Shown piece by piece: positions 40,968 to 43,221 of a stretch of DNA of 64,000 nucleotides (positions are counted from its first letter, which is position 1; each line of letters opens with the position of its first letter). The notes under the pieces were generated by a model. The model had not been told where the DNA came from. It saw only the letters and a list, made by a program, of their open reading frames with translations, and did not search any database. The stretch lies in the NCBI GenBank assembly GCA_964635715.1, contig CAZWNZ010000001.1:408616-472615 (forward strand). The letters run 5' to 3'. Both the position numbers and the translations under genes were made by a program. This stretch comes from an uncultured Gammaproteobacteria bacterium. GTDB lineage: Bacteria; Patescibacteriota; Microgenomatia; UBA8517.

Positions 40968-41852
40968 TTAAGGTAGAAGGTCGATAATGCGGTCAATTCC
41001 GAATGAAAATCCGACTGCAGGAATATCGCGCCCTGCAAACATTCCGATCAAGTTGTCATAGCGACCGCCGGCTCCGATCGTAAGCTTTTCGGTTTTGTTC
41101 AATTTAAGTTCATAAACGGTTGAAGTGTAGTAATCCAAACCTCGGGCGAGATATGGATTAAAAACAAAATCGGTTCCTTCTTTAAATCCTTTATTTTTAA
41201 GTTCTGCAAAAATTTGAGTTAATCTTTCGGTTTTGGGTTCTTTTGAAAGTTTTTCCAAAATATTTTTTCCTACAAGTTTTTCTACTTCCCCTTGTCCGAT
41301 CTTATCAATTTTGTCGATAATTCTAACTTGATCCTGTGTTATGCCTAGTTTATCAAATATCTTTCGGTCATTGATTTGAATGTATGCATCGTTTAGGTCG
41401 ATCGCTCTGACTCCTTCAACTGCCGCAGCAATAACTTGTACATCTTCTTTAAAATCACTTGAACCAACAGTATCAAGATCGAATTGAGTAAATTCTCTGC
41501 GTCTGCCTCTTTGCGGATTGTCCGCACGGAAAGATTGGCCTATTTGATATCTTGAAAATGTCGGTTTTAGAAGGCCTAAGTTATTGGCAATAAAACGGGC
41601 TAGGGGAACGGTGAGATCGTATCTTAGTGCAAGCTTTCGGCCTCCTTTATCCTCGAATGTATAAACCAATTTTTCATCCTCGCCGTATTTACCCAATAAG
41701 GTTTCTGCAAACTCTACAGTTGGGGTTTCGAGCGGGACAAAGCCGTATTTTTCAAGCACGGGGACAATAGCGTTTATCATAAAACGCCTCTTTTTGGTTT
41801 CCTCCGGCATAATGTCACCGAACCCTTTTGGTGTAACTGGTCCTTTTTGCAT
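40968..41852 (-). CDS. hisS: Histidyl-tRNA synthetase catalytic core lacking the anticodon-binding domain (294 aa)
   Basis: The HisRS motifs PKGFGD and LRYDLTVPLARF are present. Motif 2 is FRADNPQRGRRREFTQFDLD. Motif 3 is GAGGRYDNL. The ORF ends right after GFSFGIDRIIDL with no downstream continuation. Confidence 0.75.
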   Translation of the reverse strand: MQKGPVTPKGFGDIMPEETKKRRFMINAIVPVLEKYGFVPLETPTVEFAETLLGKYGEDEKLVYTFEDKGGRKLALRYDLTVPLARFIANNLGLLKPTFSRYQIGQSFRADNPQRGRRREFTQFDLDTVGSSDFKEDVQVIAAAVEGVRAIDLNDAYIQINDRKIFDKLGITQDQVRIIDKIDKIGQGEVEKLVGKNILEKLSKEPKTERLTQIFAELKNKGFKEGTDFVFNPYLARGLDYYTSTVYELKLNKTEKLTIGAGGRYDNLIGMFAGRDIPAVGFSFGIDRIIDLLP

Positions 41853-42161
41853 ATATTTAGTTTACTATGAACATCCTCCTTCGCCAAGGCTTCGAGGGTT
41901 GCACGTTCTTGATGGACAAAAAAAGGAACCTTTCGGTTCCCTGTATTATCGAACACTTAAGTTTTACGCTTCAAGTAAGCGGCCCGTATTTGGCGGGCTC
42001 CGTTTCCGATTATTCAGAAATCCCATCGCGTGACTGATGGTTTAACGGATTTATTTAAAACCTCCCTTTCGTTGTCCCGAAATATATCGGGACAAGGAGC
42101 GAGAGGTTTTCTAACAGATACAAAAGAGTATTATAGCGCTATATTTTTATATGTCAACTGG
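41853..42161 (-). promoter_or_regulatory. ~300-nt structured 5' leader of hisS with intrinsic terminator/attenuator
   Basis: No ORF is present. On the minus strand it has nested hairpins (GTCCCGAtatattTCGGGAC) and a 12-bp perfect palindrome, TATAGCGCTATA. GGAACC-gaaa-GGTTCC plus U7 lies 66 nt before the start codon. Confidence 0.4.
41918..41940 (-). terminator. Leader terminator hairpin (GGAACCGAAAGGTTCC + U7) upstream of hisS
   Basis: The plus strand reads aaaaaaaGGAACCtttcGGTTCC. On the minus strand this gives a GAAA-tetraloop hairpin followed by seven U. Confidence 0.5.
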
Positions 42162-43112
42162 TTAATCAGTTTCTATTTTTAGTATTGAACGGGTAATTGA
42201 AGGTGAGCCTGTAGTATCCGAGACGACGATAAGCATGTCATCCACGTCAATATCAGCAAATTTTATAGTGTTTGTATCACCCTCCGAAAAAGAAGCTATC
42301 CAAGTGTTTTTTCCCGGTGTAACAGTTATTGTCTCGCTGTTATCAATCGGTGCGGCATTAAAAGATTTTTTAGTAAGTTCGGTTACTTTTACAATAGAAA
42401 TATTTACTTGAGGCTGGGAAAGTTCATCGGCAATTAAAATACGGGTTGCTTCGAGTACATCATTTCCGTCGGTGTATCCCATGGCTATTATATAGTCCCC
42501 AATGGCAATATCTGTTAATTTAACAGTTTTGTTGGTTGTGCCAGTAGTGTTTACAACTGCAATGTCATATTTATTTGTAGCTATTTGTTGAATTTGATTA
42601 TCGACACCTTCAATTTGAATTGTAGAATCTGAGATGTCTGTTATTGTTCCCACATATGATTTGGGGGAATTTTTATCTCCTCTTTCATCTGATGTTACAG
42701 GTTCAAAAGATGCCGAATATATAGAAGAAACCTTTTGTGAAGCAGTGTCTCCATGTGTATTGAGAGCTGTTACTTTGATATGGTTTATTCCCGATGTCAA
42801 CTCAACATCCGTCTCAAAAGAACCGTCCTCTGAACTTTTAGTAATATAATCCTCGTCATTTGCAGAAACGATAATCCAAGCTGAAGACTTGGTAATTCCG
42901 GATACAGCAGTAGGACTTTCTGTAATTACATCAAAATCACTTGGTTTAAAAATAGAAATTTTAAATTGTTCGACTGCGTTCAGAGGTTGGGGAGTGGGTT
43001 GAGATTCCTTTTCCTTTAAAGCTACTGAAGAGCGTACCCTCCAAGCTCCGAATCCAATTATTAATCCAAATGAAATTCCGATTATTCCTGCCCAAATAAG
43101 TTCTTTTCGCAT
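42162..43112 (-). CDS. Membrane-anchored extracytoplasmic protein (beta-rich, Ig-like repeats)
   Basis: An N-terminal TM is present (ELIWAGIIGISFGLIIGFGAW). The remainder is Ser/Thr-rich beta-strand-like sequence. The start is taken at MRKEL. Confidence 0.55.
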   Translation of the reverse strand: MRKELIWAGIIGISFGLIIGFGAWRVRSSVALKEKESQPTPQPLNAVEQFKISIFKPSDFDVITESPTAVSGITKSSAWIIVSANDEDYITKSSEDGSFETDVELTSGINHIKVTALNTHGDTASQKVSSIYSASFEPVTSDERGDKNSPKSYVGTITDISDSTIQIEGVDNQIQQIATNKYDIAVVNTTGTTNKTVKLTDIAIGDYIIAMGYTDGNDVLEATRILIADELSQPQVNISIVKVTELTKKSFNAAPIDNSETITVTPGKNTWIASFSEGDTNTIKFADIDVDDMLIVVSDTTGSPSITRSILKIETD

Positions 43113-43221
43113 ATGCAAGACCACAATATAGTAGATTGATCTATTTAAGTCAAGAAAGTGAAGATTTATCAATTGACGAAAACATATATTAATTGTAAAT
43201 TCTAAATTGTAGATTAAACAT

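Follow-up and report, generated by a model that had tools for sequence, protein, structure and literature searches.

We identified a structured RNA element directly upstream of hisS, the gene for histidyl-tRNA synthetase (HisRS), in a 64,000-nt stretch of DNA from a member of the Microgenomatia (positions 408,616 to 472,615 of contig CAZWNZ010000001.1, GenBank assembly GCA_964635715.1; this whole stretch is called the window, and positions below refer to it). The element occupies the minus strand of a 309-nt intergenic space (41853-42161) between the stop codon of a 336-aa open reading frame (ORF) and the ATG of hisS (Table 1). The folding energy of this strand is -96.6 kcal/mol compared to -69.8 ± 5.6 kcal/mol for shuffled sequences (z = -4.79; 0 of 100 shuffles equal), in agreement with the preliminary description of the locus, which noted a structured leader with a GAAA-tetraloop terminator before hisS. 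The last U of this terminator, referred to as T1, is located 65 nt before the hisS ATG according to a terminator scan, and its fold amounts to -11.6 kcal/mol. At the other end of the space lies a sigma-70-type promoter, TTGACA-16 nt-TATAAT, which scores 12 of the 12 consensus positions, with a transcription start predicted near 42123. The same strong promoter is found at the same place in the related loci L001, L004, L010, L019, L201, L202, L210 and L214. The spacer is a minus-strand transcription unit that would yield a RNA of approximately 205 nt, from the consensus promoter to the intrinsic terminator T1. The 79-aa ORF on the plus strand, previously judged likely to be spurious, is indeed so: it has no Pfam match and its frame is broken in relatives by stops, indels and frame changes. 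The similarity that this ORF shows in relatives comes solely from reading, in antisense, the conserved RNA blocks and the 5' end of hisS.

Loci from related organisms were compared, consisting of 80 genome loci, 15 more that were retrieved via exact-protein look-ups and 120 metagenome loci. The leader is composed of two modules, M1 (window 42057-42110) and M2 (window 42052-41918). M2 begins with AAAUCCGUU, followed by a hairpin with GUCACG in the loop, two more small hairpins and then the terminator. Type A loci, comprising the window and the eight loci that share its promoter, consist of promoter, M1, M2 and hisS. Type B loci have M1 and U6 only (L003, L005, L008, L009, L011-13, L204 and L215, the latter with no clean U-run, and the seven metagenome loci L092, L116, L124, L128, L132, L136 and L185); here a strong consensus promoter is followed by M1, usually with U6, and hisS, and the sequence of M1 is conserved without any tRNA-sensing part. 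M2 alone is present in type C (L022 and L212), and L206 and L208 have no leader, hisS being located 3-7 nt after the previous gene. The element occurs in short forms such as that of the window, whose HisRS proteins are 71-89% identical to the window HisRS, and in full-length forms. In some relatives an extended -10-like motif is present between M1 and the decoding module.

A covariance model of the decoding module (R1) was used to gather 87 copies, and a second model (R2) was built from full-length relatives only, leaving out the window and all short forms. R2 matches 41954-42052 over model positions 1-80 of 80 with 51.4 bits and an E-value of 7.6e-11, which is its only match in the 64-kb window. 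Because R2 was built without the window, this match indicates that the window holds a genuine decoding module of the lineage. The covariation analysis with related leaders, which had been suggested as a check on the leader, gave strong support for this module. In its four nested helices 93.2% of the cells are paired and 14 of the 16 pairs change on both sides (81 distinct sequences), resulting in a covariation score of 0.783. Shuffled alignments score 0.178, none of 500 being as high as the observed value, and slid controls score no more than 0.124. More than 30 distinct complementary sequence pairs join the Stem IIA loop to the tail following the F-box, and this pseudoknot pairing has a mean score of 9.0 compared to 5.3 for mismatched partners. 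Judged from these alignments, 41954-42052 is homologous to the tRNA-decoding module of T-boxes that form a divergent lineage in Microgenomates, which belong to the candidate phyla radiation (CPR).

The histidine codon CAC is present in every complete copy aligned. It had been advised to look for a His specifier in an internal loop; the codon is present, but in the terminal hairpin loop of Stem I. In the window, Stem I consists of 5 bp with an 8-nt loop and has no distal platform (AG bulge and distal loop) for the tRNA elbow. Where a K-turn (GA motif) might form below Stem I, the consensus of the family reads GUUUGA-stem-GA, compared to GUUAAA and GA in the window. The base helix UCC/GGA covaries with AGC/GCU, and Stem II is a hairpin of 4-5 bp with the conserved loop C(C)AAAU(A). 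Among the 11 short forms the helices of Stem I, Stem II and IIA/B are compensated, and the sequence of CAC, the F-box region, the linker core and T1 does not vary. This combination of compensated helices and invariant CAC, linker and T1 indicates that the element is under selection and not decaying.

Table 1. Features of the hisS leader locus in the window, together with copies of a second conserved motif in related loci (positions in the respective locus).
Feature	Position	Strand	Sequence or remark
336-aa ORF	42162-43172	minus	5' neighbour of the leader region
Sigma-70-type promoter	42130-42157	minus	-35 TTGACA 42157-42152; -10 TATAAT 42135-42130
Palindrome, 12 nt	42132-42143		TATAGCGCTATA
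M1 hairpin	42057-42110	minus	AAAACCUCUCGCUCCUUG-(apical stem GUCCCGA/UCGGGAC)-CAACGAAAGGGAGGUUUU
T-box decoding module	41954-42052	minus	matched by R2; covariation
Base helix	42049-42047 / 42001-41999	minus	UCC / GGA; part of decoding module
Ultrashort Stem I	42040-42036 / 42027-42023	minus	CCAUC / GAUGG; loop AGUCACGC
Specifier CAC (His codon)	42030-42032	minus	Stem I terminal loop
Inserted hairpin	42020-42002	minus	lineage-specific; part of decoding module
Stem II	41997-41994 / 41986-41983	minus	CCCG / CGGG; loop CCAAAUA
Stem IIA	41981-41979 / 41969-41967	minus	CGC / GCG; part of decoding module
F-box-like sequence	41969-41962	minus	GCGUAAAA; part of decoding module
Pseudoknot IIB	41977-41971 / 41960-41954	minus	UACUUGA / UUAAGUG; covaries
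Linker	41942-41953	minus	UUCGAUAAUACA; between pseudoknot and T1, from the alignment of 11 short forms
T1 terminator	41918-41941	minus	GGGAACC 41941-41935; GAAA 41934-41931; GGUUCC 41930-41925; U7 41924-41918
GC-rich hairpin	41874-41898	minus	CCCUCGAAGCCUUGGCGAAGGAGG; between T1 and hisS; shared only with L010 and L210
-10-like hexamer	41859-41864	minus	TAAACT; 6 nt 5' of hisS ATG; found by eye
hisS, 294-aa ORF	40968-41852	minus	gene downstream of the leader
Release-factor ORF, 232 aa	38750-39448	minus	
Second motif, L059	808-904		
Second motif, L187	1316-1411		
Second motif, L162	3775-3861		
Second motif, L050	1-66		
Second motif, L184	195-268 and 381-449		
Second motif, L143	1475-1542		
Second motif, L073	3435-3504		
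Second motif, L044	5639-5711		

The part of the leader that follows the decoding module differs from that of the full-length relatives. The linker core UCGAUAAUA is identical across all 11 short-form relatives and its flanks vary; T1 is likewise identical across all 11, while the decoding helices at the same loci carry compensatory changes. Together they form a block of approximately 40 nt, UCGAUAAUAnnGGGAACCGAAAGGUUCCU6-7 (window 41918-41953 and 10 relatives), that is invariant except for the two adjacent n positions. On the basis of this alignment, the invariance of the block exceeds the needs of a plain terminator. The preliminary description correctly remarked that a canonical T-box sequence could not be found: in the window it is deleted and the discriminator is lost, ACAGGGAACCGAAAGG being present in place of AAGGAUGGGACCGCGGGAGG in the relatives, and neither the canonical T-box AGGGUGGNACCGCG nor a 7-nt bulge with UGGN is present. 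At the UGGN position the window has AGGG; A replaces U in 10 of the 11 short forms and only L022 keeps UGGGG. Stem III of the full-length relatives is missing from the window and from all 11 short forms, in which no such stem lies between pseudoknot and terminator. The window block can be aligned by eye with AAUAAGGAUGGGACCGCGGGAGGUCCU6 of the full-length forms. T1 therefore appears, by this alignment, to be derived from the T-box core and the first small terminator UGGGACC-GCGGGA-GGUCC-U6 after a deletion in which the window lineage would have lost Stem III, an extra hairpin and the UGG of the bulge, approximately 70 nt in all.

With the sequence in this state, it is scarcely conceivable that the region is a canonical, fully functional T-box which was overlooked both in the preliminary description and by Rfam. 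The His codon, the terminator, the downstream hisS gene and the homology of the decoding module would fit such a T-box, but UGGN, the 7-nt bulge, Stem III and the elbow platform are all lacking and Rfam gives no match at E ≤ 10; the sequence itself already contradicts this reading.

M1 is a conserved hairpin of the leader, with a fold of -32 kcal/mol and an nhmmer homology E-value of 4e-15. Its consensus in relatives is CCUCUCGYUCCUUG, a variable apical stem and then CAAnGAnnGGGAGG. Compensatory variants were found in the apical stem (GCUCACC/GGUGAGC) and in the basal stem (CCCCCCG/CGGGGG in L215). M1 of the window is homologous to the terminator hairpin of full-length relatives, but it is located 5' of the decoding module and is followed by U4 only. 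A scan of metagenome contigs with an M1 pattern yielded 121 copies, and the order seen in the window, with M1 upstream of the decoding module, occurs in none of them. In approximately 110 of these 121 copies GGATGGGACC is found 24-165 nt upstream (mostly 31 nt) and AGTCACG approximately 150-200 nt upstream. Two other roles of M1, as a K-turn or site of protein binding and as a second Stem I that carries an Arg codon, were considered and dropped, as the full-length relatives have M1 as their terminator. The initial, pyrimidine-rich part of the transcript, ACUCCUUUG, was considered as a competitor of M1; it occurs after these promoters whatever comes next and was dropped as unspecific.

The terminated fold of the window leader, with M1 and T1 both formed, is the clear ground state with a total of -77 kcal/mol, compared to -57.4 kcal/mol when pairing between M1 and T1 is forced. 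Pairing of T1 with the 5' strand of M1 was considered as a long-range antiterminator in the window. The duplex comprises 13 bp with -13.9 kcal/mol, compared to -11.1 ± 2.9 kcal/mol for shuffles, of which 156 of 1000 were as good. Because the duplex is no better than shuffles and forcing it costs approximately 20 kcal/mol, we do not propose an M1-T1 antiterminator.

The full-length leader starts with a promoter, the base helix and a Stem I of 4-5 bp with loop (A)GUCACG(AU). These are followed by Stem II with loop CAAAAU, Stem IIA and CCGUAAAA, an extra hairpin and Stem III. The 3' part consists of AAGGA-UGGGACC-GCGGGAGG-UCC-U6, then M1 with U6-8 and finally the regulated gene. UGGGACC does not vary among the full-length forms (89 of 89). 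In 85 of these 89 the bulge forms a small hairpin (GGGACC/GGUCCU or the compensatory pair GGGACCGC/GCGGUCUU), and in 84 a U-run is present; by its predicted pairing, the small bulge hairpin with its U-run amounts to a first terminator T1 ahead of M1. The UGGG of full-length members fits the C73-CCA end of the adjoining tRNA-His genes. M1 of the full-length relatives is modelled as a second terminator whose 5' strand would alternatively pair with the core as an antiterminator. The metagenome set was chosen by a fixed M1 pattern, and variation in this antiterminator is found only in L006, L015 and L045, where it is consistent with the pairing. The Rfam T-box model aligns the full length of L082 with 44.3 bits (E 8.7e-9 in a 321-nt search; gathering score 93). 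In this alignment a 6-nt loop takes the place of 75 Stem I positions, the F-box and Stem III are both accounted for, and the antiterminator is formed by AAGGAUGGGACCGCGGGA and CUCUCGUUCCUU, the latter being the 5' strand of M1. Another relative, L155, reached 32 bits with this model and nine others gave no match. Since the relatives score far under the Rfam threshold, the lineage is invisible to standard annotation. In a related Woesebacterium (L086), a compact and complete canonical T-box without T1 is located directly before hisS.

The palindrome within the promoter region (TATAGCGCTATA) was previously put forward as a possible operator, and a protein-controlled attenuator or operator was considered, with a repressor acting on this palindrome or a protein such as HisRS acting on M1. 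The palindrome exists, but it overlaps the promoter spacer and the -10 box and is not kept as a palindrome in relatives, where ACCGCTATAAT (L010) and TAGTGCTAAAAT (L004) are found. M1 conservation in loci that have no T-box part, and the invariance of T1 and its flank beyond the needs of a terminator, could point to a bound protein. The double pairing duty of M1 explains its conservation in the full-length forms, however, and no candidate for such a protein is associated with the locus. We consider control by a protein to be very improbable.

Inspection of the gene following M1 in the 121 copies showed a tRNA-His(GUG) gene in 44 cases, a HisG-like gene in 14 and hisS in 8; among the others are HisE-like, phosphoribosyltransferase-like and peptidase-like genes, and in the genome locus L045 HisE- and HisI-like genes follow a leader. 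The tRNA-His(GUG) gene is the commonest target of the full-length leader, and the U-run of M1 abuts G-1 of the tRNA (e.g., L034 563-905 and L015 384-727). As the leader runs into tRNA-His(GUG), the riboswitch would control the gene of its own ligand and be part of the pre-tRNA as its 5' leader. A second conserved motif, structured and approximately 75 nt long, with the closing helix UCCUCC/GGAGGA and the core CGCAGCAUGAGCCGUGUACGAAUAGUACUGAAAAGGCGAAUGCUAAG, was observed between T1 and M1 or before tRNA-His (Table 1). Rfam searches at E ≤ 1 with the L059 and L050 copies gave no match.

T-boxes are seen as characteristic of Gram-positive bacteria, mainly Firmicutes and Actinobacteria. The TBDB database was compiled with a short-Stem-I model in Actinobacteria only and with the Rfam model otherwise (PMC7778990), and our literature search found no paper that joins T-boxes with CPR, Patescibacteria, Microgenomates or Woesebacteria. 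The locus leads to a large T-box lineage in the CPR that lies far under the Rfam threshold. Like class I T-boxes (RF00230; Bacillus subtilis tyrS and glyQS), the window element is located in the leader of an aminoacyl-tRNA synthetase gene, displays the cognate codon on Stem I, has a Stem IIA/B pseudoknot with an F-box (CCGUUA-like) and has an intrinsic terminator before the gene. The full-length relatives in addition share with class I the T-box sequence, the 7-nt bulge UGGN-ACC, in which N matches the discriminator base, and an antiterminator and terminator with one strand in common. Unlike in class I, Stem I is reduced to 4-5 bp, the codon is in its terminal loop and not in an internal Specifier Loop, the elbow platform is missing and Stem II is a hairpin of 4-5 bp. 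The window furthermore has no Stem III, UGGN or antiterminator, the lineage scores 0-44 bits in Rfam, for a gathering score of 93, and in most full-length forms the bulge itself makes an extra terminator-like hairpin.

Also comparable are the actinobacterial ileS T-boxes with ultrashort Stem I (Sherwood et al., 2015, as cited in PMC7583486; Mycobacterium tuberculosis ileS, PMC11297988). In these T-boxes Stem I is truncated and without an elbow motif, and Stem I, Stem II and the IIA/B pseudoknot likewise make up the decoding module. Stem II of this type carries an S-turn in contact with the duplex of codon and anticodon. The ileS T-boxes are described there as controlling translation by sequestration of the Shine-Dalgarno (SD) sequence and as keeping a full discriminator, whereas the read-out in the lineage described here consists of hairpins with U6-8, the window has no discriminator, the specificity is for His and not Ile, and the phylum is another one. 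In the review literature, an ultrashort Stem I goes together with translational control (PMC7583486; see also PMC11297988). Such control cannot account for the 44 copies in which the target is a tRNA gene. Engineered delta-Discriminator constructs (PMC11297988) resemble the window element in having the decoding module only, and these constructs still bind the tRNA anticodon in a partially bound state; unlike them, the window element is natural, conserved and fused to a terminator. By the published standard, in which transcriptional control depends on elbow contact, even the full-length members of the lineage are atypical T-boxes. The lineage is a T-box lineage by homology and, in its full-length forms, by all core features; the window copy lacks several of these and may work differently.

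The reading that we favor for the window leader, and to which we give an even chance of being correct, is that of an attenuator which controls hisS in response to tRNA-His by a non-canonical read-out, the discriminator having been lost. During transcription of the leader, tRNA-His would dock via its GUG anticodon on the CAC of the decoding module, displayed in the anticodon-loop-like terminal loop of 7-8 nt of the ultrashort Stem I. The docked tRNA would hinder the formation of T1, whose 5' strand AGGGAACC probably descends from the acceptor-binding bulge UGGGACC and contains three G that could still pair with the C-rich 3' end of the tRNA. When tRNA-His is present and uncharged, transcription from the strong promoter would then read through into hisS; otherwise it would stop at T1. 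In this mechanism the binding of tRNA-His, the lowered termination at T1 upon binding and the retained sensing of charging are inferred. It is favored because it explains the position, the orientation, the promoter, the terminator and the selection on the decoding module. Of the T-box-like attenuator in the preliminary description, the ancestry, the His specifier and the terminator stand, and regulated attenuation in the window copy is best taken as a proposal, more cautious than the attenuation layout that was described.

Several points weigh against attenuation by tRNA-His. In the window UGGN is replaced by AGGG, Stem III and a supported antiterminator are missing, and the terminated fold is approximately 20 kcal/mol more stable than the alternative. 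Rfam, with which a scan for leader families had been advised, recovered one tRNA only in the whole window at gathering thresholds and chance matches only in 41700-42300 at E ≤ 10, without any T-box, riboswitch or small RNA match; the T-box model itself has no match in that region even at this E-value. Transcriptional T-boxes have been reported to need the elbow contact of a long Stem I, which is absent here (PMC7583486). The leader is also dispensable, as relatives with 85% identical HisRS are leaderless (L206 and L208) or have M1 only (type B), and hisS may have a proximal promoter of its own.

These losses raise the question whether the region is a regulatory fossil, with an unresponsive leader, T1 acting as a constitutive insulator and hisS transcribed from its own promoter. 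Loss of the UGGN bulge, Stem III and the antiterminator would be expected of a fossil, and the content of the leader is labile among close relatives, which have M1 only, the decoding module only, both or none; type B loci retain the promoter and M1 without a sensor. Yet the four helices and the pseudoknot are kept by compensatory changes in the 11 short forms, despite HisRS identities of 71-89% to the window, there is no variation in CAC, the F-box region, the linker core or T1, and the strong promoter is conserved. We therefore regard a fossil as unlikely.

The proximal promoter is suggested by the sequence just upstream of hisS. A -10-like hexamer, TAAACT, precedes the hisS ATG, and TTGGCG (41886-41881) is located 17 nt upstream of it; the pair scores 8 of 12, which is under the threshold of the promoter scan. 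In relatives, TGnTAnnnT or TATAAT precedes the hisS ATG by 6-8 nt irrespective of the leader type, also where there is no leader. A correctly placed SD sequence was not found before the hisS ATG of the window, the sole AGGAGG being 22 nt upstream and abutting another AUG. The -10-like motif close to the ATG, without an SD sequence, may reflect a proximal promoter with a leaderless hisS mRNA, or SD-independent initiation. The GC-rich hairpin between T1 and hisS was considered as a dispersed repeat and rejected, as only one copy is present in the window. L003 has a longer GC-rich insertion 5' of its promoter.

The HisRS encoded downstream matches TIGR00442 with 287.1 bits (cutoff 286.75), with a match that stops before the C-terminal third of the model, and HisZ models score far below their cutoffs. 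The protein consists of the catalytic core only, without an anticodon-binding domain, and is approximately 290-310 aa long in relatives. This short HisRS family is conserved in Microgenomates (Woesebacteria, Curtissbacteria and Daviesbacteria), and the anticodon-binding domain is encoded at only two of the 80 related loci (L050 and L079). Neither a second HisRS nor a separate ORF for an anticodon-binding domain was found in the window.

Alternatively, the region might encode a stand-alone, stable small RNA of approximately 205 nt that binds the anticodon of tRNA-His in trans, with hisS transcribed from the proximal promoter. Such a RNA might buffer tRNA-His or present it, possibly to the HisRS without anticodon-binding domain. 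The perfect consensus promoter and the strong terminator are in line with this, as are the terminated fold, which is far more stable than the alternatives, the missing antiterminator, the -10-like motif that precedes the ATG by 6-8 nt in all relatives with or without a leader, and the lack of the anticodon-binding domain in 78 of 80 loci. The extended -10-like motif between M1 and the decoding module in some relatives suggests modular units. On the other hand, the element is always in the same orientation directly 5' of hisS (in L001 an ORF comes first, then hisS), the full-length relatives are clearly cis leaders that run into their target genes, and most genomes with a short HisRS have no such RNA near hisS. 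In addition, HisRS identity depends mainly on G-1:C73, so that an anticodon reader is not needed (PMC4357726). All in all, a trans-acting RNA seems to us quite unlikely. A more elaborate version would take the window element as a natural T-box without discriminator that has ceased to be a cis riboswitch, a RNA of approximately 205 nt capped by M1 and T1 that reads tRNA-His in trans as a partner of HisRS or as a buffer of tRNA-His, from a parent lineage that mainly controls the gene of its own ligand tRNA via two tandem terminators, one of them made from the acceptor-binding bulge; this combination we consider improbable.

Compared to the T-boxes discussed above, the lineage joins an ultrashort Stem I to a terminator read-out, is His-specific and is most often located before the tRNA-His gene itself. 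The window copy represents a natural experiment, a conserved T-box without a charging sensor. If it still regulates hisS, it offers a minimal way to couple tRNA binding to termination, and if it does not, it shows what the decoding module is kept for. Either way, an annotation model is obtained for a class of RNA that is now missed in thousands of small genomes.

Two observations concern the neighboring genes. In some relatives the short HisRS gene adjoins hisG-, hisE- or hisI-like genes; the short HisRS might, from this gene context, have a HisZ-like role. Further downstream in the window, the release-factor ORF listed in Table 1 matches the PCRF domain from profile position 98 onward and its N-terminal domain is missing. 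The same short release-factor gene, encoding 227-238 aa, is found after the L31 gene in relatives.

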